The position numbers and the translations under genes were made by a program. From Dictyostelium discoideum (lineage: Eukaryota), in the NCBI GenBank assembly GCA_000004695.1, contig CM000153.2, positions 4,288,001 to 4,352,000 on the forward strand: 64,000 bases of DNA, given 5' to 3'. Every line of letters starts with the position of its first letter. The first letter of the stretch is position 1. The notes beneath the pieces are model-generated. The model was not told where the DNA came from. It saw nothing but the letters and a program-made list of their open reading frames with translations, and made no database searches. Shown piece by piece: positions 44,234 through 64,000 of the stretch.

Positions 44234-45250
44234 TTACAATTTTACCATCATTTTACCAGTATTTGTACCTTTGAATAATGCAAGAAAAGATGGCACCAAT
44301 TGATCGAAACCATTATTAATGGTGTGTCTATCTTTGAGTTGACCAGATTTATACCATTGAGCCAATTCTTTTAATGCTTCAGCATGTTTGCTTGCATAGT
44401 TTGCAACGATGAAACCTTGTAATTTTGAGGAAGTTTTCAAGAGATAACCTTCAATACGTGGGCCAACATCCTTTTCAGTAGAGTTGTATTGTGAGATTAC
44501 ACCGCATAGTGGAATACGGGCAAACTTATTCAAGTGTGGCCAAATTGCATCAGATACAACACCACCAACATTCTCCCAATATATATCAACACCATTTGGA
44601 ATTGCTTTTGCTATATCGTCTTTATAAGTTGGTGAATTGTAATTTACACCGACATCAAAACCTAATTCATCGACGATGTATTTTATCTTCTCTTCGGAAC
44701 CTACGATACCTACAACTCTGCAACCTTTGATTTTACCAATTTGACCGACCAATTGACCTACTGCACCGGCTGCAGCGCTGATTACCATGGTTTCACCTTG
44801 TTTTGGTTCTGCGATCTCTTTGAGACCGTGATAAGCTGTTAATCCGACCATACCCAAAACTGAGAGGAATGATTCCAATGGCGCTAATGTTGTATCGATT
44901 TTATTTGCATATGGACTGTTTGAATTGTAGATGAATTCAGATTGCCATGGTAAATGACCCATAATGTAATCACCTACTGAATACTTTGATGCTGAGCCTG
45001 CTTTTGTAACTTTACCAATAGCATATCCAACAATTGGTTTACCAATTTCAAATGGTGGGATATATGATTTACGTGTTGTCATACGACCTCTCATATATGG
45101 GTCTGGTGAAACTATCTCTAATTTTACTACTACTTCTTCATTTTTTAATTCTTCAATTGAAAATTCAAAAGTTTTCTCTTCAAAATCCTCCAAAGTTGGT
45201 GTACCACTTTCGATGTGATTTTTTAATACAATTTGTTTACTAAGAACCAT
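44234..45250 (-). CDS. NADP-dependent oxidoreductase of the medium-chain dehydrogenase/reductase superfamily (prostaglandin reductase 1 / leukotriene B4 12-hydroxydehydrogenase-like), 338 aa, intronless.
   Basis: Rossmann motif AAAGAVGQLVGQIGKIKGCRVVG. It also has an N-terminal GroES-like domain (KLEIVSPDPYMRGRM) and the PTGR1-like C-terminus VPSFLALFKGTNTGKMMVKL. Confidence 0.8.
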   Translation of the reverse strand: MVLSKQIVLKNHIESGTPTLEDFEEKTFEFSIEELKNEEVVVKLEIVSPDPYMRGRMTTRKSYIPPFEIGKPIVGYAIGKVTKAGSASKYSVGDYIMGHLPWQSEFIYNSNSPYANKIDTTLAPLESFLSVLGMVGLTAYHGLKEIAEPKQGETMVISAAAGAVGQLVGQIGKIKGCRVVGIVGSEEKIKYIVDELGFDVGVNYNSPTYKDDIAKAIPNGVDIYWENVGGVVSDAIWPHLNKFARIPLCGVISQYNSTEKDVGPRIEGYLLKTSSKLQGFIVANYASKHAEALKELAQWYKSGQLKDRHTINNGFDQLVPSFLALFKGTNTGKMMVKL

Positions 45251-48006: not shown

Positions 48007-48934
48007 ATTTAATTTAATATTAAAATTTATTTTATATTTTAAATTAATTTAATTTAAAAAGGTTCGTGGAAGAATGAGTGAAGGTAAATCATATATTGAT
48101 CCATTTAAGATTGGAGAACCAATTGAATGTGGTGGTGTTGGTAAAATTGAGAAATCAAATTGTAGCAAATGGAAAGTTGGTGATTACATTGCCAATAATC
48201 AATTCCCATGGAAAGAGAAATTTGTTACTGATGGTAATAACCCAGGTTGTTATAAAGCTGATAAGAACGCTGCTCCACTTCCATGTTATCTCTCTCTACT
48301 TGGTATGACTGGTATGACTGCCTATTGTGGTCTAACTGAAATCGGTGAACCAAAGAAAGGTGAAACATTGGTGGTGAGTGCTGGTTCTGGTGCCGTTGGT
48401 CAAATTGTTGGTCAAGTTGGTAAAATCATTGGTTGTAGAGTAATTGGTATTGCTGGATCGAAAGAAAAGTGTGATTTCATGACTAAGGAATTAAGATTCG
48501 ATGTAGGTATCAATTATAAATCTCCAACTTACAAAGATGATATTGCAAAAGCTGTTGAGAAAACTGGTGTCGATATCTATTGGGAGAATGTTGGTGGTGA
48601 AATAACTGATGCAGTTTTGCCACATTTAAACAAATATGCACGTATTCCACTTTGTGGTGTAATCTCTTCCTACAATAAAACCGAATTGGATGTTGGCCCT
48701 CGTATTCAAATTTATCTCTTGAAATCATCTGCAAAAATGCAAGGTTTCATTGTTTTTAACTACATTGATAAATTCCCTGCTGCCTCTAAACAATTGGCTG
48801 AATGGTATAATCAAGGTAAAATCAAAGATCAACATTCAATTAAAAAAGGCCTTGACCAAGTTGTACCATCATTCCTTTCATTATTTAATAGTGATCATCT
48901 TGGTAAAATGATTATTAAAATTGCTGATGAATAA
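47795..48934 (+). CDS. Second PTGR1-like MDR-superfamily NADP-dependent oxidoreductase, paralog of 44234..45250 on the opposite strand. Two exons: 47795..47947 and 48062..48934; about 341 aa.
   Basis: Exon 1 (MTKVKF…LIYISVDPY) ends at a GTAATT donor. The intron is mostly an A31 run plus AT-rich sequence ending AAAAAG. Exon 2 reads VRGRMSEGKSYIDPF…AGSGAVGQIVGQVGKIIGCRVIG… The paralog has uninterrupted DPYMRGRM at the same position. Confidence 0.85.
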
Positions 48935-49463
48935 ATATTAAAATTTATTTTTAAAAAAAAAAAAAAAAAAAAAAAAGTGTGTTAAACCATTAATTTTATA
49001 ATTTTTTTTTTGTAATTAAATAATTTAAAAAGATAATTGTAAATGGGGAAAATTTATAATTCAAATAATTGTAATTATTTTTTTAATTTTTCCTACATCG
49101 TTTGCATTTTTCCCGCTGGGAAATTCCATTAAAAATAAAAAAATTCAAAAAAAAAATATCTAAATAAAGATATTATTTGGTTATTAAAAAATATTGGATA
49201 TTTTTTTTCAAAAAAAAAAATTAAAGTGTTAAAGGTAGTACAAAAAAATAAAGAAATCGATTAAATTGATATTTTTTTTTTTCATTAAAAACGAGTTTGT
49301 TTTTTTTTTTCCCACCCAGAGTGCGAAAGTTGGAAATATTTTTTTTTTTTTTTTTTTTTTTTTATAAGTTTAACTTTTTTTTTTTTTTATTTTCTTTTTA
49401 TTTTTTTCTTTTCATAATTTTTTTATATTTATTTATTTATTTATTTATTTTTTAAAAAAAAAA

Positions 49464-52400
49464 ATGAAAAGGTTTTTCATTGTAATATTATTTATTTTAC
49501 TTGTCTGCATTTTTAATGTAAAATCAGAAGAACAATTGGGGGAGATCGAAATATCTAAAAATAGTTTTTCAATTGACACAAATGCCATCAATGTAAGTAT
49601 TAATAAAATAAATTGAAATTATTTATCAAAAACTGGCAAAAAATTAAGCCCTTTGTTTCATTTTTTATTAATTTTTATTTTTTTTTTTTGACTTTTTTCT
49701 TTTTTTTTTTTTTTTTTTTTAATCCCAAAGGCCGAAATTAATTATGTTATTGATAATAGTATAACCAAACCAAAATTAATAGTTACATTATTATCAGGGG
49801 ATGTAAATAGCATAGAAGATATAACATCAATTTCAAAAGATAAATCAACCTTGACATTTGGTGATTTTTCATCATTATCATTAGGCAATAAACAAAGTAA
49901 TAATAATAATAGAATTGTATTAATGATAGCGACAATCACAGGTTCTTTATTATTCATTAGATTTAATATTGGTTTTAATAAATCAACAACATTAATAATT
50001 TTAATTATTGGTACAATCTTTTTAATTGGGTCAAGTCATTCAATAACATTATCAGAAGTTTCAATTCGTATTGATATTAAAGTACCATCAACATTTAAAT
50101 TTGAAAAATTAGATTTGAAATTAGGTTCTGGTTCTTCAAATATTATTGGTTTATCTTCAAATTCAATCAATATTGATAGTTGTTTAAATTTAAAAGATCA
50201 CAAAATCAATTTATCAGACACAACAATTACATCAGCTTTAAATATTTGTTCAACTAAAAATATTGATATTAAAAATTTAAAACAATCATCAAATTCTTTA
50301 ATAAATTTAAAAACAAATTCAAATATTACTTTAAATTTTGGTGTAGGTAATTAATTATTATATATAAAAAAAAAAAAAATAATAATAATAATACATACTA
50401 AAAAAAAAAAAAAAATAGAATGGATATAGTGGTTTATTAGATATTTATAGTAATAGTTTAAAAATCGATGAAGCTTGTGATATTAAAGTGGATGGTTTAA
50501 ATACTACTGGTAGTTGTAATGAAGGTACTTCTTCTAAATTAGTTATCAATGCTAATGGAGTCACAATCACTGGTACTACTCCAACAACCACTCCAACAAC
50601 CACTCCAACAACCACACCAACAACTACACCAACAACTACTCCAACAACTACTCCAACAACTACTCCAACAACTACTCCAACAACTACTCCAACAACTACT
50701 CCAACAACTACACCAACAACTACACCAACAACAACACCAACAACAACACCAACAATAACTCCAACAACTACACCAACAACTACACCAACAACTACACCAA
50801 CAGATTCATGTCCAACAACATCAACATGGAGACCAACAATGGCATCATCAAGTTCACCAAGTTCACCATCATTTTCAAGTGTAACACCAATATTAGATTT
50901 TAATTTTGATAAAAGCAATTTAGGATTTAGATCAAGATATAAGTTCAATGAAAAAAGTATTTCAGATGGACCAAATGGTATTGCAAATTCATTTTCTATT
51001 AATTTTAATGAAACCTATTCACCAGATAGTAATTGGTTAATTTCAAAGATACCATCACCAGCATTAAGAGCCAACGTAAATTATGTATTCTCTTTTAATT
51101 TTAAATTGGGTCAGGCATTATCAAGTGATAATACAATTTCTTCAGTGACAATTTCATTTTATAGTCCAATTGATTTACCAGACCCAAATGTATTGGAATA
51201 TTTCGATCAACCAACTGCTTCACCATTATTTACAAAAACAATTACCACTGGTAGTTTCTCAAGCTCAACAACTTTTCAAGCAAATAGCATATCAATTAAA
51301 CCAACCACTGATATTGGTTTATCATTAATTGCAATTCAAATCATTCGTACCAAACAAAATAGTATTCCAATTAATTTATATTTTAGTGAAATGAAATTAA
51401 GCATTCCATCGAAATCAATTATTGATCCAACAACATTTTTAACTAAAGATTCAGAATTGATTAATATTCCAAAAGCATCAGCATCATTTGATTCACAAGA
51501 TCCATCAACATGTCCATATTTAGCAACTGATTTAGTTCATTGGCATGATAAATCCATTTGGAGTTCTGGTATTGTACCTTTACCTAACGCATCGAGTAAT
51601 ATTATTTTACCAGCTGGTAAAAGAGTTTTAATTAGTCCATGTTCAATTTCACAAACTGATATCTATAAAAAAATAACCATTCCACCAACAAGTGAATTGA
51701 TTTTTAGTGATGTCAATATGACAATGCATGTTCAAGATATCTATGTTCAAGGTAAATTCACTATGGGTACAAAAGAATGTCGTTACAATGCCTATATAAA
51801 TCTAATTTTTCATGGTACTAAAACCACCAGTGATACTATTGCCACCAATTTCGGTTCAAAAGGTATTGCAGTTGCTTCGGGTGGTTTCATTTCAGTACAA
51901 GGTAAACAATATCATAATACTTGGAGTAAATTATCAACCACTGCATGGTCTGGTGATTCTACAATCTATATTCAAGATTCTGTAAATTGGGAAGTTGGCC
52001 AACAGGTTTTAATAACAACAAGTGTCTACAAGGATGAATTGTACAATCAGAATGAGGTTTTAACAATTGCTGCAATCTCTGGTAAGAAAATTCAATTTAC
52101 AAGTGCACTTAAATATTACCATTATGGTGGTCAAGAATATCAAGCAGAGGTTGGTTTACTCTCAAGAAGAATCGTATTCCAAGGTGATCAAAGTTCATCG
52201 GATCCTCAACAATTTGGTGGTCATGTATTGGTTAGTGGTGAAGGTCAATTCTCGGGTTTATCATTGGTTCGTTTTGGTCAAAAAAATATTAAAGGTCGTT
52301 ATCCACTTCATTATCATTTGGCAAATAATGTTCAAAAATCTTATATCTCTGATTGTTCAGTTATTGATAGTTATTATCGTTGTTATACAATTCACGGTAC

Positions 52401-54099
52401 CAATGGTGTGACATTAACTAGAAATGTTGCATTCAATGCCATTGGTCATTGTTATTATTTAGAGGATGGTGTAGAAGTTGATAATACAATCTCTTACAAT
52501 TTAGGTGCTTTTGTTCATACCATTGGCACACCGGCCGCTGGTTACAATCAATATGGTCAAGATTTCCTACAATCATCCGATCTTACTCAACCTGCCGATT
52601 CAGCTGCTGCATGTTATTATATTACAAATGCAGCAAATTCTTTCATTGGTAATGCAGCATCTGGTGGTTGGTCAGGTTTCGCATTCCCAAATTTACCACG
52701 TCCAATAGGTAATCATCTTTCAGTTTCAATAGTACCATCACAATTTATTGCAAAAGTTTGGGAAGGTAATACAGCTCATAGTTCAGGTTATTATTTCGAA
52801 TTTGGTGCTTCAATTTATGTTGGTGGTTTATTAACTTATAATGATGCCACTGGTTTATTACAATATAGTAGTGGTAGAGAATCAAGAGATACCTATTTGA
52901 CTGGATATAACACTTCAGCAGCAGTTTGGATGAGATTTAACAATACTAAAGTTTATCTTAGCAATAGAGGTTTATCAATGTGGGGTGAAAGAACTGAGGC
53001 AGTCAATTTGGAGAGTCATGACTCTAGAAGACCTGCTTCATTATTTGGTGAAGCATGGTTATCAAATGCAATCGTCAATGGTCAATCGGGTAATATCTTA
53101 TCAGCAAGTGTCGAATACACTAGACAAGGTTTCCAATTTTATGATACTTACGTTCAGACCATCATTAGTAATATCATCTTTAGAAATTTTATAAAGTATC
53201 AAAATGCATCATCCAATGAAGAAGATAATAGAGTCATCATTAGTATGACACATAGTTCAGAATTCCTTCCACAAGGTATATCAGTATCAAAGAATATCAC
53301 AATTCAAAACACTGCTACCTCACAATTCATCGGTCATAATATTCCTGTCAATAGTACTGGTAGTAGTAGATTCTTTAATTTCATCGATTGGGATGGTAGT
53401 TTAACAGGTAAAAATGTTCCAACCCTAATTGGATCTCATGAGAAATTTTGGCAATTCGATAATACTTGTTCATTCAATTCAGATTGGAATTGTTATGTTT
53501 GTACTAAAGGTACAAGAGAGATTGCCAATGTTCAATTCTGGGTACCAGGTTTAATTTCAAGAGATGATGCTCAAAATAATGATGATTCAATTGGTAGCAT
53601 TTCATTATTTGGTGATGGAATAACTGATCGTCGTTCAACTAGAGTCATTCATACCGCTGGTATCACTGGTGTTAGTAATTCAGGTTGGTACCTTTATTTA
53701 ACCGATGGTACTCCAACTTATATGAAAATTTGGTTAGCTCAAGTAATTTACAATAATTATCTATTCATTGCAATTCCTTATCCAGCAACTACAACATTCT
53801 CTGTTAGTTCAGAGTATAAATATAATAGTAATTACAATTTCAATTTCACTCAAACATCTTCAGCTTCCGCAGTTAGAAGTGGTGATGGTAAGAAATATTA
53901 TTTCGATGGTACTCATTTATTCATTAAAGTCATTAACTTTAGATTAAATGGTACTGAAAGTTTTGATCGTGGTGGTGCAAAAGTTTACGATGTTTATTGG
54001 GAATTCCTCATTCATATCACTGCTTCAAATACAATAAAGCCACCAGTAAATGGTTTCTTTAAAGGGTTAACTGATACTTTACCATCTTCAAATTTGTAA
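49464..54099 (+). CDS. Large secreted G8-domain protein resembling CEMIP/TMEM2 (KIAA1199), which have a hyaluronidase-like fold. It has a signal peptide, a middle exon, a (TTTP)n mucin-like linker and a ~1100-aa G8/GG-type domain. Exons: 49464..49592, 49731..50342, 50419..54099; about 1470 aa.
   Basis: Signal peptide MKRFFIVILFILLVCIFNVKS. The donor is GTAAGT. The second donor GTAGGT is weak and less certain. A 29-copy TPTTTP repeat lies at 50573-50800. Downstream is VRFGQKNIKGRYPLHYHLANN…YRCYTIHGTNGVTLTRNVAFNAIGHCYYLEDG, then a cysteine-containing region (…CSFNSDWNCYVCTKG…). These are collinear with the CEMIP G8/GG region (…GRYPVHFHL…SRCVTVHGSNG…GHCFFTEDG…). The call is from memory of that family. 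Confidence 0.6.
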
Positions 54100-54188
54100 A
54101 ATTAAAAATTAAAAATTAAAAATATAAAGTATAAAATAAAATAAAATAATAAATTTTATTTTTAAATTTTAATAATTATAATTGTAAA

Positions 54189-55063
54189 TTAATAAAAAAA
54201 AATTGAAAATAATAATAATAATAATAATAGTATTAAATTTGAAGATAGTTTTATAGATGAATTATTGTTATCATTATTATTGTAATTGTTATCATCATCA
54301 TTATTATTGTTTTCATTATTATTATTATTATTTGTATTTGTATTCGTATTAGTTTTAAATTGACAATCTTCACAAATTCTAAAAGAGTCACCTCTATCTT
54401 TACCAATAATTAACATTGCAACAGAATTTAATTGAAAAGCAGTTGGATTTTCCATTTGACATTCAATTGAATTAAATGTTGATTTCTTTACAAAACAAAT
54501 CTCTGTGTCTCCTGATGTTATTGAAATATCAGAGATATTATATGAGAAATATTTACCTTTAATTATTAGTTGATTTGATTTTAAAATTACATTTTTAATA
54601 TCTGGTTGTTTAGTTTTATCTGTTGAAAAAATGTAATCATTATTTTCAATTTCAATAATTAAAATATCAGGAACCGTTACATTTTCTGCATTCTTTGGCC
54701 AATTACTTTTAAATTGGTTCTTTGCTTTATCATATTTCCATTCTAATATAACTTTAACATTATTTTTTATATCAATACTACTATTAAATGATTCATTACC
54801 AATACCATCACCCCTTAATGTAAATGTTTTATTTGGTAATTTTTCATAATTTAAATTTGGAATTATTAAATCTTATTTAATAAATAAAAAATTAAAATAA
54901 AAATAAAATAAAATATAATAAAATAAAAAAGTGAATTAATATTAAGAATAATTTAATTATTATTATGTTTTTTTTTATTTTTTTTTTTTTAATCCAATTT
55001 ACTTTGTGATAAAACAAAATTAAAAAATAAAAATATTGAAATGAGTAGTATTAATAGTTTCAT
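54189..55063 (-). CDS. Secreted protein with signal peptide and a C-terminal hydrophobic tail (GPI-anchor-like), about 247 aa. Two exons: 55003..55063 and 54189..54871.
   Basis: Exon 1 (MKLLILLISIFLFFNFVLSQ) ends at a GTAAAT donor. The acceptor AATAAG precedes exon 2 (…LIIPNLNYEKLPNKTFTLRGDG…ICEDCQFKTNTNT…[23 protein letters not shown]). No family recognised. Confidence 0.45.
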
Positions 55064-55760
55064 TATTTTAATTAAATAAAAAAATGAAAATTGAATAAAA
55101 GAAAAAAAAAAATGATTAGAAAAAAAAAAAAAAAAAAATATTATATATATAAACCCCAAAAAAAAAAAAATTCACACTTAAAACAATTATCCAAAACCGT
55201 ATCTGACTTTTTTTATTTTTATTTTTATTTTTATATTTTTTTTATTTTTTTTATTTTTATTTTTATTTTATTATTACAATTAGATAAATATAATATATAA
55301 AAAAGAGAAAGATGTGGGTTGTATGGTGTGGTAACATTAGTATTTTTACCAAAAGTAGTTATATTATATGAGAAAAAAATAATTTTGGTATTTTTGACAA
55401 TTATAATTCAATTTGTTAAATTCGATTTTCAGTTTTATTTTAAAATAATAATCCAAATCAAAGGTTCCAAAATTAGCTATCATAAAAAATATTATATTTA
55501 TTTTTTAAATCTTTTTTTTGTCCCACAAATTCAAGTTAAATCTTTTTTTTTGATCAAAAATAAAATAAAATAAAATAAAACAAAAAAAATAAAATAAAAT
55601 AAAATAAACATCATTTAATTTTTCCAAAAACCCTTTTTTTTGTTTTTTTTTTATTTTTTTTTATTTTTTATATTTTTTTTTTTATTATTTTTTTTTTAAA
55701 TTTTTTTTTTTTTTTACTTTTTTTTTAATTAATGAATGTGTGCCCACATAAAAATTAAAG

Positions 55761-56343
55761 ATGAATAAAGTTATATTATTATTCTTTTTATTTATAACAT
55801 ATAGTAGTAATCTTTTAGTTCAATCGCAAACTTTAACAAATATAACAAAATATCCAGATACATCGCAATTACAATACGATCAATCATACTTAAGAATATG
55901 TACAAATCTTTTTGAACAAATTGTCAATTTTAATACAACTTTATCTGTTGAATTTGTTTATGATGCATGTTATACTTGTGAATATCAAAATTTAGTTGTT
56001 TTGGAGTAAGTAAATAATATTGATATTAATAAAAAAATTGGGGGCACCAATTTACTTTTTTTTTTTTTTTTTTGTAAACTTAATCTAATTATAAAATGTA
56101 CAATTTTTTATAGTTCATCAAGTTCAAAATATATTATTATGCCAAGTACGTTTGGATATAAATTTAATATTAGTGTATTATATAATGGAAAAGCACAAGA
56201 TGATATATTATATTTATCATTTCATGAAACATTTGGTGAATATGGTATCTATGACATTAGTGTAAACATTTCTACAGTAAATGTAACAAAGTAAGTATAA
56301 ATATATAATAATTATTATTATTATTATTTTATTATTATTATTA

Positions 56344-56376
<33 letters not shown>

Positions 56377-57981
56377 AAAATTTATCATTCAGTTAAAACA
56401 TTAAAAGAACCAATTAATTCAGAGATACCAATTGCAGTATTATTTTCAATTTTAGTTGGTATGGCAATTTTATGGCCATTTATAGTTTATTTATATAAGA
56501 GAAGTAAAAGAGATTCATTAGAGTATCAATTGATGGCAAGTGTTGAAAGAGAGAATAGAAAAAAAGATAGATTAAGATCATTGGATGTATTTAGAGGATT
56601 TTCAATCACAATTATGATCTTTGTGAATTACGGTGGTGGTGGATATTGGTTCTTTAATCATAGTTTATGGAATGGTTTAACCGTTGCAGATTTAGTTTTC
56701 CCATGGTTTGTTTTCATCATGGGTATTGCAATGCCATTATCATTTCATGCCATGGAGAAAAGAGGTACACCAAAGAGAATCATCTTTCAAAAGTTATTAC
56801 GTAGATCAATCATTTTATTCGCGTTAGGTTTATTCATAAACAATGGTGTCGATTTACAACAATGGAGAATTTTAGGTGTACTTCAAAGATTTTCAATCTC
56901 TTATTTAGTGGTTGGTTCAATTATGTTATTCGTACCAATATGGAAATTTAGATCTTCACCAAATGATACTATAAATATTAATGATGGTAGTAGCGGTGGT
57001 GGTGGTGGTATTGGTATTCAATCACAACAACAGCATCAATCACAACAATATAATCATTCATCACAACAGTATAGTCAACAACAGGTATTTTTAATACCTC
57101 AAGAAGTGGTTGAACAACAATCAATTTTAAATGGACCATCAATGAATAATATTAAAGATACTGATACTTTTGTTAAAGGTAATATATATATGTCAATGAT
57201 ACAACATGAGACTGTGATTAGTAAATATTTTTCAGATATAGCTCCATATTGGATTCAATGGGTATTTGCTTTAATCATTTTTTCAGGTTGGTTCCTATTG
57301 ATGTTTTTAGTGCCTGTACCAGGTTGTCCAACTGGTTATTTGGGTGCTGGTGGTTTGGCAGATCAAGGTAGATATCAACATTGTACAGGTGGTGCTGCAC
57401 GTTTAATAGATTTGAAAATTTTCACTGAAGCTCATATCTTTCAAAATCCAACATGTCTTGAGGTTTATAAAACACCATCCTACGATCCAGAAGGTACCGT
57501 TGGTTATTTAACAAGTATTTTCCTTTGTTTTATTGGTGTTCAAGCGGGTAGAATCATTCTAACATATAAGTCAAATAGATCACGTTTAATACGTTGGATG
57601 GTTTGGTCAGTGGTACTATGTGGTATCGCTGCTGGGTTGTGTGGGTTAACTCAAAATCAAGGTTGGTTACCAGTTAATAAGAATCTTTGGTCACCATCTT
57701 TCATTTTGTTGATGGCTGGTTTTGGTTTCTTTGTTTTAACCGTAATGTTTATTTTGATTGATATCAAAAAGATTTGGAATGGTTCACCATTCATTTATGT
57801 TGGTATGAATCCAATCACCATCTATTGTGGCCATGAAATTTTGGGAACTTATTTCCCTTTCTCTTTCAATGTTACCTATCAAACTCATTCATTATATTTA
57901 CTTTCCAATTGTATTGGTGTTGGTTGTTGGTTATTAATAGCTTATCAAATGTATAGAAATAAATTATTTATTAATATTTAA
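55761..57981 (+). CDS. hgsnat: Heparan-alpha-glucosaminide N-acetyltransferase homolog (HGSNAT/TMEM76 family lysosomal multi-pass acetyltransferase). Exons: 55761..56005, 56114..56290, 56376..57981; about 675 aa.
   Basis: The TM-domain core is collinear with human HGSNAT. Dictyostelium: [51 protein letters not shown]…[38 protein letters not shown]…YDPEGTVGYLTSIFLCFIGVQAG…LPVNKNLWSPSF…IYCGHEIL. Human: [52 protein letters not shown]…[39 protein letters not shown]…[23 protein letters not shown]…IPVNKNLWSLSY. The N-terminal luminal domain carries the signal peptide MNKVILLFFLFITYSS. Both donors are GTAAGT. The only exon-3 acceptor that keeps the frame is the AAAAG inside an A-run at ~56374-75. 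Confidence 0.85.
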
Positions 57982-58352
57982 ATTAAATATTATTCTGAAA
58001 AAAAAATAAAAAATAAATAAAAAAAAAAAAATTATAAATAAAATAAAATTAAAAAATACAGCAACTCAATTTAAATTTTTAAATTATAATAAAAAGATAA
58101 TCGGTTTGGGAGAAAATTAAAAAAAAGTTTGGATTTATTTTTATTTTAAATCTTGGTTATTTTACAAATCTTTACTATTTTTTAAATAATTGTCAAGTTA
58201 AAAAAAAAAAAAAACAGAGTTTGATTGAAAAAATAACAAAGATATTAAGCATATATATGTGTTGTTATTTTTATTACTATTGCTTTTTTTTTAATTTTGA
58301 TAGTTGAATGTTAATTAGTTTATACTCTAAACTTTTTTTTTTTTTTTTTTTT

Positions 58353-58470
58353 AATATAATTAATTTTTTTAAATATATATATATATAATTAATTTTTTTT
58401 AATATATATATATAATTAATTTTTTTTAATATATATATATAATTAATTTTTTTTTTTTTTTAAAAATAAT
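58353..58470. repeat. Tandem repeat of about 27 bp, (AATATATATATATAATTAATTTTTTTT) x ~4, in intergenic DNA.
   Basis: Visible at 58356-58466. Confidence 0.6.
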
Positions 58471-58921
58471 TAATTTTTTTTTTTTTATAAATCTATTTAT
58501 CTATATTCATATTAAAAATAAATAAAATTAAATTAAATTAAATCATTGCTAAAATAAAATAAATGAAAAAAATGAAAAAAAAAAAAAATAAAAAAAAAAA
58601 AATAAAAAAAAATAAAAAAAAACGATTGAAAAATATGGAATAAAAAAAAGAAATAATTTTATAATGTATAAATTTAAAAAAAAAAAAGATTTACTTTATA
58701 ACTATTTATTTTCATGGAAGGTTATTAATTTTCATTTTTTGATTTTTATAACCCCACAAACAAAAAAAAAAAACTTTTTTTTTTTTTTCAAAAAAAAAAA
58801 TTTCAAAAAAGTTGGTTATAAATTTCAAAATTCTTCACTCATCGACAAATAAAAAAAAAAATTAGTTATTTTATTTTTTATTTATTTGTTTTTTTAAATT
58901 TTTTTTTTTTTTTCAACAATA

Positions 58922-59872
58922 ATGATGGTTTCTTTTGATAATAATAATAACAATAACAATAATAATAAAACAACACTCTCATTAATTAATTCAAATGAAT
59001 TTTTAATATTATGGCAAGATAAGAAAATTAGTGATGGTGATTCAATTGAATTTATAGTATCAAATTTATTATCAATATTAATTAATGAAGAAGAAGAGAA
59101 AGAAAGGAATTCATATGAAAATGGAATAAATTATAATAATGGATCAGGATATGAATATTTACATTCATTTTATAATCCAAAAGGATTTAAACCAAGTATT
59201 TCAATCACTGATTTCACTTATAGATTAGTAAAGTATTTAGGATGTAGTAAATCATGTTTTATAATTGCATTAATTTATTTAGATAGAATCATTGAATCTG
59301 ATAAATTTAAAGTACCAATCAATGGTTATAATGTACATAGAATTTATTTTACATGTATTTTAGTTTCAATTAAATTCTTTGATGATTATTTTTACCCATT
59401 AGATATTTATTCAAGAGTTTGTGGTGTATCATTAGAAGAAACAAGTAGAATGGAAAGACAATGTATAAAATTATTAGATTTCAATGTAAATATCAATTTA
59501 AATCAGTTTAATGATTATTTATCAATTTTAGATTATAAAGGTTTCATTCAATTCGAAATTGAAAATCAACCTTCTGATGAAGAAGATAATGAAGAAGAAG
59601 AAGAAGAGGATAATGAAGAGGAGGAAGAAGAAGAAAACTATAAAGAAGAGGAAGAATATCAAGAAAGTATTGATGATTATGAAAATAGAATTAATATTGT
59701 TGAAAAGGTTAGTTATAATCATAATGATGGAGACAATTATCATAGTGGTGGTAGTAATAGTAATAATTCAATGATTAACTCTCCTCAAGAAGTACCATTG
59801 AATTTACCACAAAGATTAATTAATAAAAGTAGAATTACAAAATCAGATACTCTTATTATAAACTTTAATAAA

Positions 59873-59927
<55 letters not shown>

Positions 59928-60214
59928 GCAATAATGGTAGTGAAAACAATAGTAATAATAGTAGTAGCGATAGTATACCGACTATTATGTTTGGTGGTAG
60001 TGGTAATAATATAAACAACTACCCATCAAGAGCAATAACAATTGAAAGTAGATTAAAAGGTAACACTTTAAGTCAAAGTTTAGATAGTAAAGATATATTC
60101 TTAAGAAATTCAACAAAACGTTTCCCATCTAAGTTTTCAATTTCACCAGATTTAAGATCAAAATTCATTATTAGTAAAAGTAGTAGTAGTGGTAGTAAAT
60201 CAATTAAAAAATAA
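58922..60214 (+). CDS. Cyclin-like protein of the Pho80/PCL (cyclin P/U) type, 430 aa. It has Asn-rich and acidic low-complexity regions.
   Basis: The cyclin-box region is YRLVKYLGCSKSCFIIALIYLDRIIESDKFKVPINGYNVHRIYFTCILVSIKFFDDYFYPLDIYSRVCGVSLEETSRMERQCIKLLDFNVNI, typical of the PHO85-cyclin family (LIYLDR…RLFLTCLMLASKFLDD-like). Single ORF with an ATG start. Confidence 0.7.
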
Positions 60215-60547
60215 TTTATTTTTTATAAATAGATTTTATTTTAATTAATTATAAAATTAATGTTGTACAATATAATAATAAAAAAAAAAAAATAAAAATA
60301 AAAACTTATTTTTCAGAGTGTATCTTTTATTTTTTTTTTTTTTTTTTATTTTGCCCGGTTATTTTTTTTTATTATAAAAAAAAATAATAAAAAAAAAAAA
60401 AGATATTTTCCAAACCACCCCAACCTTTTATAATTTTTATTTTTATTTTTTTTTTTTTATTTTTATTTTTTTTTTTATTTTTATTTTTATTTTTTTTTTT
60501 TTTCTTTTTTCTGATCTACAAACGAGCCCAATAAATAATTAAAAAAA

Positions 60548-60953
60548 ATGAAATTATTATTTTTTTTAATCTTTTTTTTATTAATAAATTTTAATATTTT
60601 TGTTGAGTCCCTAAAAATTACTGATCTATCAACAAAATCATCACTCAATCAGTATTCAGATGGACCGAATCAAAATAATTTTCCAACATGTAAATTTGTT
60701 GTAGTATTATTTTTAGAATTGTCTGAAAGTACAAATGATATCCGTTTATTCCAACCAGAATATAGTCAACAAATCTATTCACATTCCACTTCTCCATCAA
60801 ACGGCAATAAAACTTTAATTTATCAAATTGAAAGCTGGGCCTCTGATTCAAAAAATGGTTTAATAGTTGGTAATTACACATTTGGCGAGATATATCCAAA
60901 TGGAACAATAGCAGTATCTAATATAAATAAAAACTTTTATTGTTCTGGTAAAT

Positions 60954-60984
<31 letters not shown>

Positions 60985-63900
60985 ATTATTTATAGTTTGA
61001 ATGTTGTATTAATTAATAAATATTAATATTTGAAAAATTAAAGCGCCACCATTACCAGAAAAAAATAATATTATAGCTACAGATTTTAGTTTATATGATA
61101 ATAAAATTATGATTAGTTATTTTTCAATTTATTCATGGAATAGAGCAAATTTAATATCATTATCATTTATTGATAATTTAAAATCAGATATATGTGATTC
61201 TGATTGTAGAATTGAAAAATCTGGTAATTATTATATGATTTATATGAAAATTAATAATTTTGATACAATGACATTTTCAATAAATTCAACATACCATAAT
61301 AATTTCAATTTTGCTCTAACTATTAATGGAATTTTTAAAAATACAAAAAGTAAGTATTTTCATTTTAAAAAATAACAATATAAAAAACTAAATATAAAAC
61401 AATTTATTAATAAATGAATAAAAAAAAAAAAAAAAAAAAAAATTTTAGAAGCTAATATGGTAATTCCAACAAACGTTAAATTTTATCCATCGGGTCCATT
61501 TATAAATAGATTTAGTGTTAATAGTTATAGCTATAGTTTAATTAATTTAGATTCAGATGAACCAATTAAATATTTATCATCAAACTATGTAAATTCAAGT
61601 GGTTTTGAAAAATTTGAAATTCAAATGAGTCAAATAATTTTTACAAATAAATTATCACAAGCATTTTTAAATCAAAATCATTTAATGAATGAAGCATATT
61701 ATGAATATAGATATTGGAATAATCAAACAATAAATAATAATATTAATCAAGTTAATAAAAATGAAAAGTTATTATCACCACTTTACCAAATTGAATCATA
61801 TATAAATGGAGATGTTGTATCGGGTCCTCCTTTTACTACATATACAGCTTCGATAGGTGCAATGGATTTTTTAGGTATTGGTTCAATAAATACTAAAACT
61901 CTTTCATTCCCAATGGTTTTAATGTATCCACAAATATCATTTACAAAGTATTATTCATTCCCATTTGGATGTAGTGTTGCAAATGAATCAACATATATAA
62001 CATCGATAACTCAACCAATGAGTAATGGTATTCAAGGAACTTTAAAAGTTTTTATTGGTGGATCAAATGTATATAGTGTAGATGCTAGTTCAATTCCAAA
62101 GGAAACTTTAATATTTTCATTGGAATTTATTTATATTGGTTTTAATAAATTCATGGTTAAAACTAAAATTGGGGGTGATTTTTATTTTATAACAAGTCAA
62201 AGTTATGATTTTGATTTTGCTGTTGTTAAAGCTACTGGTTATGATGGTGTTGGATCATATTCTAATATTTTTCAACCTTCATTTGGTCAATTTAAAGATT
62301 TTACAACATTCAGAGCATTTAGTGGTGATTTAAAAGAAACACAATTACCAAAACATTTATTACCAAGAATTCCAAATTTAAATGAAATCATTGAATCACC
62401 AATAATTAATTCATTAAAATTTGAAGTTCAATCAATGAATACAACCGATGTTGGTGGATTAAATACAGTTTATTTAGGTTTTAATAATTTTGACTTTAAA
62501 CATTCAATTTTTCATCATCCATCATTTATTTTATCACCTAAAAGTTTATCTTCAAATATTCATTTTCATAAAGCAATACCTTTCACTTTAATTGATGAAA
62601 ATAAAAAATTATTTAAAGCAGAATTTTATGTACCAGCTAATTTACCAACTGGAGAAGTTGATTATTCAATTGTAAATAATGTTGGTTATGAATATACTTC
62701 AAGTTATATTAAATCATATTTATTAAATAATCCATCAACTGATAGTAATGTGAATGATACATCGTCATTATATACTTATTCAGAATATGGTTATTCATTA
62801 CCACCAATAATTAAATCGTATTCATTTGAAAAAGAAATAGTTGAAATTAATGATTTACAAAATTTAAATAGAATTAATTTAACAATTCAATTACAACCAT
62901 CAAGAAATCAATTTGATAACGGTTTCATTTCAATTGAAAGTTCAAGTATTACTACATTTAGAAAGATGTATTTTAATTTTTCATTTACAAATGAACAATT
63001 AGTTGGCGGTACAAATGATACATTTACATTTGAATTGAAATTTCCATGTTTTACAAGTAAATATGAAATTATAAATGTTACATTGATTGATAAACAAGGC
63101 TATTTATCCTCATTTAATAAATATTCATATAATGGTGATATTACTACAACAATACCATTACCAATTGACCCATTCATGATTTTTAATACTGTGAAGGGAT
63201 TTAGTGTGCAATGCAATCAATTGGCAATTCTAGAATCATCTCCAATAATTACATCATTAACCGCAAATTTAAATTCAATAATAACTAATTCACCAATTAC
63301 AAAAGATTTACAATTTACTCTACAAGTTAAAGATCCAATTGGTTTAATGACAGAATCACAATTACCATTTATTTATTTAGTTGGTGGTTTAATTGATGAT
63401 ACTATTAGAATACCTTTTGAAATTTATCAATATAATGATACATTTGCGACTTTTAAATCGAATCCTATCACTGTCCCATTTGGTTTTGGTTTACCATTTT
63501 TATCAATTCCATTATCAGTATATGGTATTTGTAATAAAGTTGGTATTATTAGTGGATACAATAAAAATCAATTAAAAGGAATGAATAACACACAAATTAT
63601 CCATGAAATTCCAATTGTTTCAATAAATTTAACCAACATACCAATAATTTTAGATTCATCAGCATTCTATAGTATAGGTGGAAATTTAACATTATTTGGA
63701 AAGAATTTACAAGATGCTTTATCTGTTAACGTTTTAATTCAATCAACCCAATTATCATATCCAGTAATTGGAAATCAAAATGAAAGTTATTTAACAATTA
63801 ATTTACAACCAATTAATGAACCATTTTATGTTAATATAACCAATAGTAATTTATTTTTAATAGTTCCAATTCAAGTGCCCAATAAAGTTAATGAATATAA

Positions 63901-64000
63901 AATTGTACCATCAACACCAATACCAACAAATCCTCCTCAAAAATGTATTGGTAATCCACAATGTGGTGGAGCAACACATGGTACATGTACTGAATCAGGT
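60548..64000 (+). CDS. Large secreted, heavily N-glycosylated cell-surface-type protein whose 3' end runs off the window end. Exons: 60548..60947, 61044..61349, 61449..64000+. It has repeated beta-rich modules (IPT/TIG-like, resembling the Dictyostelium Tgr/LagC-type adhesion protein family) and an EGF-like start (CIGNPQCGGATHGTCTESG) at the window edge.
   Basis: Signal peptide MKLLFFLIFFLLINFNIFVES. Donors are GTAAAT and GTAAGT; acceptors are AATTAAAG and ATTTTAG. From 61449 there is more than 2.5 kb of open frame with no stop to nt 64000. Its absence from the ORF track fits a stop lying beyond the window. The family call is tentative. Confidence 0.55.

Follow-up and report, generated by a model that had tools for sequence, protein, structure and literature searches.

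What does a protein of the CEMIP/TMEM2 family do in Dictyostelium discoideum, an amoeba that is not known to produce hyaluronan? The question is raised by a gene at positions 49464–54099 of a 64,000-nucleotide stretch of its genome (contig CM000153.2 of assembly GCA_000004695.1, positions 4,288,001 to 4,352,000 of the forward strand; hereafter the window), and it reaches beyond the amoeba: the enzymatic nature of CEMIP and TMEM2 is itself still argued, and the active site is unassigned in both. On balance we consider the product to be a large extracellular, probably membrane-tethered and putatively carbohydrate-directed protein of the CEMIP/TMEM2 (G8 and beta-helix) family. Hyaluronan is an unlikely substrate, and the first-pass annotation of this DNA reasoned soundly when it left the substrate open.

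The gene lies on the + strand, as do all features described below unless stated, and its three exons join into a 1473-aa product with no internal stop. Exon 1 (49464–49592, 43 codons) carries the start codon, a predicted signal peptide and the first strands of an N-terminal beta-solenoid, and is followed, from a GTAAGT donor at 49593, by intron 1 (49593–49730; 138 nt, GT..AG, 15% GC), which contains a poly-T run, shortened by 4 nt in another assembly. The separate 204-codon middle exon proposed at first pass is confirmed as exon 2 (49731–50342); it encodes the remainder of part A of the beta-solenoid, a hydrophobic hairpin and most of part B. A weak GTAGGT donor at 50343 opens intron 2 (50343–50418; 76 nt, GTAGGT..TAG, 8% GC), and read-through at this point meets a stop after 3 codons. 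Exon 3 (50419–54099, 1226 codons and TAA) holds the end of the N-terminal module, a Thr/Pro linker and the complete CEMIP-like module. The GC content is 8–15% in the introns against 21–33% in the exons. In comparison with 13 long paralogues of other dictyostelids, both exon junctions are collinear and gap-free (NFG|NGYSG here, for instance, corresponds to QFSNGFSG in one paralogue). In the NCBI annotation of GCA_054883475.1 the DNA of the coding sequence is identical, and the gene call agrees with our model in start, stop, 1473-aa product and total intron length, the equivalence of the products being judged from coordinates, length and intron total. The exon model stands, weak donor included. 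A hand check of the phase-1 donor GTAATT at 50347 led to its rejection, as no acceptor restores the frame, and a 167-aa open reading frame on the minus strand (50445–50948) with a (GVVV)n run is not a gene, being the repeat of the linker read in reverse.

The gene is not new. Public annotation already calls it and names its paralogues "G8 domain-containing protein", and the family is known; the entry of the gene in GCA_054883475.1 has no Pfam family on record. The protein collection that we searched contains no exact match to the 1473-aa product, which we attribute to a gap in the collection and not to biology, and homologue searches of it returned no match above 67% identity. By elimination, and from Swiss-Prot names, the AX4 gene may be DDB_G0286311. 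Within the window no further paralogue was found by tblastn, and no tRNA is present. ComC-family genes adjoin the gene.

There are at least six paralogues in D. discoideum counting the gene itself, the others listed being DDB_G0288475, DDB_G0286897, DDB_G0278975, comF (DDB_G0273257/G0273669) and rliB (DDB_G0278243). comF is annotated as "Communication mutant protein F", a name that reportedly comes from the 2003 screen of Kibler et al. The C-terminal module is common to all of them (57–66% identity in about 1090 aa). In addition, the long types G0286897 and G0278975 share with the gene an N-terminal module containing a pair of hydrophobic segments and the positions of the exon junctions, whereas the short paralogues have a signal peptide only. 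Our protein shows the features of the dictyostelid long type, namely a signal peptide, the N-terminal module with the hydrophobic pair, and a C-terminal module that opens with C-P-x-x-x-x-W-R. Its N-terminal module is of the long type, and its C-terminal module clusters with the clade of the short-type DDB_G0288475 (96/100, 50 NJ bootstraps). As a whole the family runs to more than 5000 sequence clusters, diatoms and other protists among them, and in distant relatives the same core is combined with true CBM_4_9 modules and PT linkers.

The core of the protein is a beta-helix opened by a G8 domain (51559–51936, aa 628–753; Pfam PF10162, E 4.9e-31), whose profile is matched over its full length with a score of 107.6 bits (cut-off 22.9). 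This domain forms the first turns of the helix and aligns with residues 65–165 of the TMEM2 chain. Continuous with it is the CEMIP beta-helix (52210–52785, aa 845–1036; PF24606, E 5.8e-50), which carries the motifs RCYTIHGTN and GHCYYLEDGVE and, as had been noticed at first pass in the form GRYP(L/V)H(Y/F)HL, the motif GRYPLHYHL (aa 873–881, 52294–52320). A C-terminal beta-sandwich region follows that resembles CEMIP domain X weakly (53692–53931, aa 1339–1418; PF24605, E 5e-5, 21–23.3 bits, under the cut-off of 27.6 bits), and in a profile search the region aligns to TMEM2 chain residues 868–1052. No other Pfam family is matched in the protein at E <= 1. A set of 174 family proteins shows 87 positions with a conservation of at least 92%; the helix core contains 48 of these, and human TMEM2 has the identical residue at 31, including H815, E824, R830, H849, Q868, Y875, H878, H880, R901, H906, E929, E933, N936 and N941. 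Judged from the spacing of the rungs, the conserved His, Glu, Arg and Asn residues would form one patch, at which the beta-helix would most likely act catalytically on a polysaccharide.

The beta-helix and the beta-sandwich could instead only bind a glycan or a protein, the molecule being a non-catalytic surface adhesion or signalling factor in developmental cell-cell communication. Several observations point that way: the name of the paralogue comF, the adjoining ComC-family genes, the "adhesin"-type fold of the N-terminal module described below, and the finding that the TMEM2 ectodomain is inactive in vitro. However, a strongly conserved set of polar residues (His at 5 positions, Glu at 3, Arg at 2 and Asn at several) has been kept from amoebae and diatoms to human TMEM2, a pattern seen more typically at catalytic or metal sites than at binding surfaces, and the structural neighbours are mostly enzymes. 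We consider a purely adhesive or signalling role unlikely.

How the probable carbohydrate-directed protein is held outside the cell is suggested by its N-terminal part. Read by eye, the N-terminus looks like a signal peptide, as had been proposed (aa 1–21, 49464–49526; MKR, 14 hydrophobic residues and VKS|EE). The module that follows (aa 22–88 and 152–299) has no Pfam match at E <= 1, and its fold resembles 4QRK, 3PET and 3LJY (Foldseek E 2e-7 to 8e-4). Alignment with the 13 long paralogues gives 18 invariant positions in it, including four cysteines that come after the second of two hydrophobic helices. These helices (49914–50051; aa 105–123 and 129–150, with the loop RFNIGFNKS) may represent a transmembrane hairpin. 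Kyte-Doolittle peaks reach 1.9–2.5 for the segments of this protein and of each of the 13 long paralogues, and the pair (19-mers in exon 2 of this gene, 15–19-mers overall) is present in 14 of 14 long-type proteins, where its hydropathy is kept and its sequence is not; the connecting loops contain 2–3 K/R and 0–1 D/E. AlphaFold2 places helices at 100–122 and 128–142 with low pLDDT (about 55–60), outside the beta-solenoid, with confident beta structure on either side (pLDDT about 90, pTM 0.72). Because the hydrophobic pair and its K/R-rich loop are conserved and the segments are modelled as helices, the pair encoded by exon 2 suggests a membrane hairpin anchor, and the first-pass description of the protein as secreted becomes doubtful.

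A freely secreted, soluble enzyme with a mucin-like stalk would require the hydrophobic stretch of exon 2 to be buried or processed away. Such an enzyme would fit the signal-peptide-like N-terminus and the short paralogues that possess nothing but a signal peptide, one of which, RliB, has been identified by mass spectrometry in a band of about 170 kDa from the culture supernatant of D. discoideum (PMC12139333). The presence of RliB there at this size indicates export of the family and, probably, heavy glycosylation. On the other side stand the hydropathy of the pair and its K/R loop, retained throughout the 14 long-type proteins, and the position of the modelled helices outside the solenoid; moreover, a stalk makes little sense on an unattached protein. 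We give free secretion a rather small chance and prefer the membrane-tethered protein.

Two further elements separate the N-terminal module from the core. The first is a tandem repeat at 50575–50802, in which a 12-bp unit recurs 19.0 times (TRF score 344, 94% matches) and encodes (TTTP)19 over 76 aa (aa 300–375). A Thr/Pro linker had been proposed and is indeed present; the proposed 29 copies and the unit (TPTTTP)29 are replaced by 19 copies of T-T-T-P. The repeat is missing from every homologue sequence compared; among the D. discoideum G8 paralogues this gene alone carries it. By analogy with other surface proteins of Dictyostelium, it may be O-glycosylated. The second element is a beta-sandwich before the G8 domain (50878–51420, aa about 401–581), modelled by AlphaFold2 with 11 strands at pLDDT about 80–90 and lacking a Pfam match at E <= 1. 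Foldseek gave matches to CBM4, CBM16 and CBM22 (E about 1e-3, TM about 0.55 per target, the matched region of the query being unreported), and hhalign comparison with the CBM_4_9 modules of the distant relatives gave a probability of 4%, which is not significant. From these weak fold matches the domain is possibly CBM-like.

Taken together, these parts allow the following model of the tethered protein. The signal peptide would be cleaved from the N-terminus, leaving next a small "putative adhesin" (DUF4097/GIN-like) beta-solenoid, the chain of which would enter the membrane and return as a hairpin of two helices, the short loop on the cytoplasmic side being positively charged. The 76 residues of (TTTP)19 would act as a stiff O-glycosylated spacer, and the beta-sandwich beyond it may bind a glycan. 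In the final part, the long right-handed beta-helix built from the G8 domain and the CEMIP beta-helix, capped by C-terminal beta-sandwich structure, would bind an extracellular polysaccharide and most likely cleave or modify it at the His/Glu/Arg/Asn patch on consecutive rungs. Putative substrates are the matrix or sheath glycans of Dictyostelium or the glycans of bacterial prey.

For annotation the gain is modest: the corrected map has 19 repeats, lacks GG domains and gains a beta-sandwich and a probable membrane hairpin. The presence of at least six GG-less paralogues with the beta-helix residues in an amoeba without known hyaluronan implies that the conserved core is older than hyaluronan metabolism, and these paralogues offer a simple, genetically tractable system for the function of that core. 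We propose only tentatively, as a possibility more doubtful than not, that the long-type G8 proteins of dictyostelids, ours among them, are GG-free, membrane-anchored enzymes that cleave or modify polysaccharides, with the His/Glu/Arg patch common to them and human CEMIP/TMEM2 as active site. If this were true, the CEMIP family would have an intrinsically catalytic beta-helix core with an ancestral substrate other than hyaluronan, Dictyostelium with its knock-outs and comF-type phenotypes would provide a tractable test of the dispute over CEMIP and TMEM2 as enzymes, and the beta-solenoid anchor interrupted by a hairpin would be an undescribed mode of tethering such an enzyme.

Comparison with known systems places these proposals in context. 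The bacterial "putative adhesin" beta-solenoids of the DUF4097/GIN type (4QRK, 3PET, 3LJY) have their fold in common with the N-terminal module, which differs in having no Pfam or sequence match to them and in being broken by two hydrophobic helices. The beta-helix polysaccharide enzymes (AlgG/AlgE4 epimerases, PL6 lyases, GH87, GH110, GH28 and phage tailspike depolymerases) are alike at the level of the fold only; identity to them is 5–14%, and none of their family-specific catalytic motifs is matched. Human TMEM2 (CEMIP2; ectodomain structure PDB 8C6I) and its paralogue CEMIP/KIAA1199/HYBID are the closest characterised relatives. Hyaluronidase activity was not seen with the soluble ectodomain of TMEM2, in which an active site was not assignable (PMC10206443), and a 2025 review cites one paper in favour of intrinsic activity and one that argues against it. 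Common to these proteins and ours are a G8 domain opening one right-handed beta-helix, the CEMIP beta-helix, C-terminal beta-sandwich structure (with domain X there and the weakly matching region here), and the motifs GRYP(L/V)H(Y/F)HL, RC.T.HGTN and GHC..LEDG.E; identity to TMEM2 is 31% over 270 core residues. The first-pass annotation had taken the C-terminal ~1100 aa as collinear with the G8 and GG region of these proteins. Collinearity holds for about 850 aa and the G8 domain is clear, but residues 376–620 have no TMEM2 counterpart in the alignment, and the GG part is contradicted by profile alignment and Pfam. The G8 block is separated from the next helix block by about 170 residues in TMEM2 and by 3 profile positions (670 to 674) in the Dictyostelium family; GG/lectin-like domain 1 was not found, and TMEM2 chain residues 165–334, a beta-sandwich and that lectin-like domain with R265, D273 and D286, inserted after the third helix turn, lack a counterpart. 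GG/lectin-like domain 2 was not found either, with about 57 profile positions left beyond the final aligned block where TMEM2 has about 250 residues, and the AlphaFold2 model contains no alpha/beta lectin domain. A hyaluronan-depolymerising enzyme of the kind proposed for CEMIP/TMEM2 would accord with the homology, yet it is very improbable in a protein that lacks both GG domains, in a family whose cluster representatives number more than 5000 and reach diatoms and other protists, and in an organism not known to make hyaluronan. Like TMEM2 and CEMIP, the Dictyostelium protein would be extracellular, probably with a membrane tether as in TMEM2. Unlike TMEM2, whose GG domains carry the sole mutations tied to hyaluronan breakdown, it is without both of these domains, and its host, in contrast to the hosts of TMEM2 and CEMIP, has no known hyaluronan; it has instead an extra beta-sandwich before the G8 domain, a (TTTP)19 linker, and an N-terminal beta-solenoid with a putative two-helix hairpin in place of the single type II anchor of TMEM2.

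The three exons of the G8 gene (49464–54099, forward strand), namely 49464–49592 (43 codons, donor GTAAGT), 49731–50342 (204 codons, donor GTAGGT) and 50419–54099 (1226 codons plus TAA), join into 1473 amino acids with zero internal stops. GC content is 8–15% in the introns versus 21–33% in the exons, and an unspliced intron 2 leads to a stop three codons in. The GTAGGT donor, regarded as weak in the first-pass annotation, is supported by an alignment with 13 relatives of the long type, that is, dictyostelid G8 proteins with an N-terminal module (about 1400 aa each, from D. discoideum, D. firmibasis, D. citrinum, D. purpureum, Polysphondylium violaceum and Heterostelium album). Both exon junctions are gap-free against 13/13 of them, and the exon 2/3 junction (ITLNFG before, NGYSGLL after) pairs with IDLQFSNGFSGSI of a paralogue. 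Record CM142510.1 (5.58 Mb) of a second D. discoideum assembly, NCBI GCA_054883475.1, matches window positions 48912–64000 with 0 mismatches and three homopolymer-length differences, none within coding sequence; these changes (A4, T2 and T4 at 48953, 49339 and 49700) fall in intergenic DNA and intron 1. Its annotation has the same start and stop, a 1473-aa product and an equal total intron length, so the gene has been annotated before; its family is also publicly annotated. No Pfam matches are on record for the gene, although its G8 and CEMIP domains are clear. With the other named D. discoideum G8 proteins eliminated, we take it to be probably DDB_G0286311. The protein collection searched contained no relative above 67% identity, and no orthologue was seen there for D. 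firmibasis, D. citrinum or D. purpureum, which could reflect a database gap or a truly lineage-specific gene; the absence of the protein itself from that collection, while the gene is annotated elsewhere, is regarded as a database gap.

The C-terminal module belongs to the CEMIP/TMEM2 family, as had been proposed. Pfam detects G8 (aa 628–753, E 4.9e-31), the CEMIP beta-helix (aa 845–1036, E 5.8e-50) and, below threshold, CEMIP_X (aa 1339–1418). The sole solved structure matched at sequence level is the human TMEM2 ectodomain 8C6I (E 5e-33 from the single sequence, 1.4e-55 from the family profile), which the AlphaFold2 model of aa 382–1473 (pLDDT 81.7, pTM 0.80) also matches in Foldseek (E 3e-35). 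Exhaustive phmmer with aa 596–1473 returned 5491 cluster representatives at E ≤ 1e-3, of which 1102 reach E ≤ 1e-30; other Amoebozoa, diatoms and a pelagophyte are represented. In a set of 174 family proteins, conservation reaches 92% or more at 87 positions; of the 48 that lie in the helix core (aa 755–1040), human TMEM2 has the identical residue at 31, among them H815, E824, R830, H849, Q868, Y875, H878, H880, R901, H906, E929, E933, N936, N941, N987, N992 and N1031. Their spacing of 24–28 residues fits a stacking on consecutive rungs, an arrangement shared by catalytic motifs in beta-helix enzymes such as GH28. The beta-helix probably acts on a polysaccharide other than hyaluronan.

The N-terminal module (aa 22–299; AlphaFold2 pLDDT 79.9, pTM 0.72) is modeled with confident beta structure at aa 23–86 and 154–299 and helices at aa 100–122 and 128–142. 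The two helices overlap hydrophobic segments present in 14/14 long-type proteins, where hydropathy is kept and sequence is not; the joining loop carries 2–3 K/R and 0–1 D/E in every one (n = 14), and after the second helix come four cysteines that are invariant. We infer that the pair forms a transmembrane hairpin whose loop is cytoplasmic, which would place both solenoid halves and everything downstream outside the cell; the earlier description of the protein as secreted is therefore probably wrong. The reading we favor, with reasonable though not strong confidence, is a hairpin-anchored surface protein in which a Thr/Pro spacer would keep a glycan-directed beta-helix off the membrane. Foldseek matches the N-terminal module to bacterial "putative adhesin" beta-solenoids (4QRK, 3PET, 3LJY; E 2e-7 to 8e-4), and a non-catalytic adhesion or communication molecule, for which the helix core would have no enzymatic role, is an appreciably less probable alternative.

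The spacer itself is a 12-bp unit repeated 19.0 times at 50575–50802 (TRF, 94% matches, score 344), coding for 76 residues of TTTP (aa 300–375) and not the "29 copies" or (TPTTTP)29 first reported. The insert occurs in 0/13 long-type relatives, whose N-terminal module joins the C-P-x-x-x-x-W-R start of the C-terminal module directly. The units cluster in identical-variant runs, for example six successive ACTACTCCAACA followed by pairs of ACTACACCAACA and ACAACACCAACA, which fits recent slippage expansion, and copy number may vary between strains. A 167-aa (GVVV)n reverse-strand ORF (50445–50948) is spurious, being the opposite-strand reading of this repeat.

At least five further paralogues exist in D. 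discoideum: long-type DDB_G0286897 and DDB_G0278975, and comF, rliB and DDB_G0288475 (66% identity) of the short type, which lacks the N-terminal module. In the NJ tree the C-terminal module falls into the clade of the short-type DDB_G0288475 (96% of 50 bootstraps), yet the N-terminal module is of the long type; as the two types are intermixed, gain or loss of the N-terminal module must have happened repeatedly. Mass spectrometry of culture supernatant assigned a ~170-kDa band to RliB (PMC12139333), so a short-type member is secreted; the 1117 residues of RliB predict a far smaller size, which suggests heavy glycosylation. A freely secreted enzyme, like RliB in location, is nevertheless improbable for a protein carrying the conserved hydrophobic pair. 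Among other homologues, H. album PPL_10508 (P0017, 1734 aa) has PARG domains upstream of the G8 module, probably a gene-model fusion, and an ENA protein (P0023, 1592 aa) has ~500 aa of Ser/Thr-rich sequence in place of the N-terminal module.

Both genes flanking the G8 gene are of the ComC family, at ~54185–55062 (−; 247 aa, Pfam Beta-sand_ComC_2nd) and ~60538–64000 (+; 1413 aa, DUF7035, DUF7949 and ComC_SSD), the latter extending beyond the window end. ComC and ComF, the latter a paralogue of our protein, were reportedly named from one communication-mutant screen. Just upstream sit two ADH_N_2/ADH_zinc_N oxidoreductase genes, 44234–45250 (−, 338 aa), also on transcript-like Logan contigs of ~1.1 kb, and 48074–48934 (+, 341 aa).

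Compared with TMEM2, the protein both gains and lacks parts. An 11-strand beta-sandwich ahead of G8 (aa ~401–581, AlphaFold2) corresponds to nothing in TMEM2; CBM4, CBM16 and CBM22 modules (E ~1e-3) appear among the Foldseek matches of the C-terminal model, Pfam and hhalign give no support for a CBM identity, and we call it CBM-like only tentatively. True CBM_4_9 modules and PT linkers accompany the G8, beta-helix and X core in distant diatom and metagenome relatives. The GG domains claimed in the first-pass annotation are both absent: the G8 block stops at TMEM2 chain residue 165 and the next begins at 334 while the family profile moves just from 670 to 674, no further Pfam family appears at E ≤ 1, and past the last aligned block TMEM2 has ~250 residues (lectin-like domain 2) versus ~57 profile positions here. 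In TMEM2 the first gap is filled by a small beta-sandwich plus lectin-like domain 1, both inserted into the helix (Niu et al.; PMC10206443). Despite the homology, a true hyaluronidase is very unlikely because these domains are missing. The absence of both GG domains matters since all reported activity-abolishing TMEM2 substitutions lie in lectin-like domain 1 and the soluble ectodomain shows no activity at all (PMC10206443), and the literature is divided over whether TMEM2 is an enzyme. The chief value of the G8 gene is as a tractable model for working out what the CEMIP-family core, shared with TMEM2, does.
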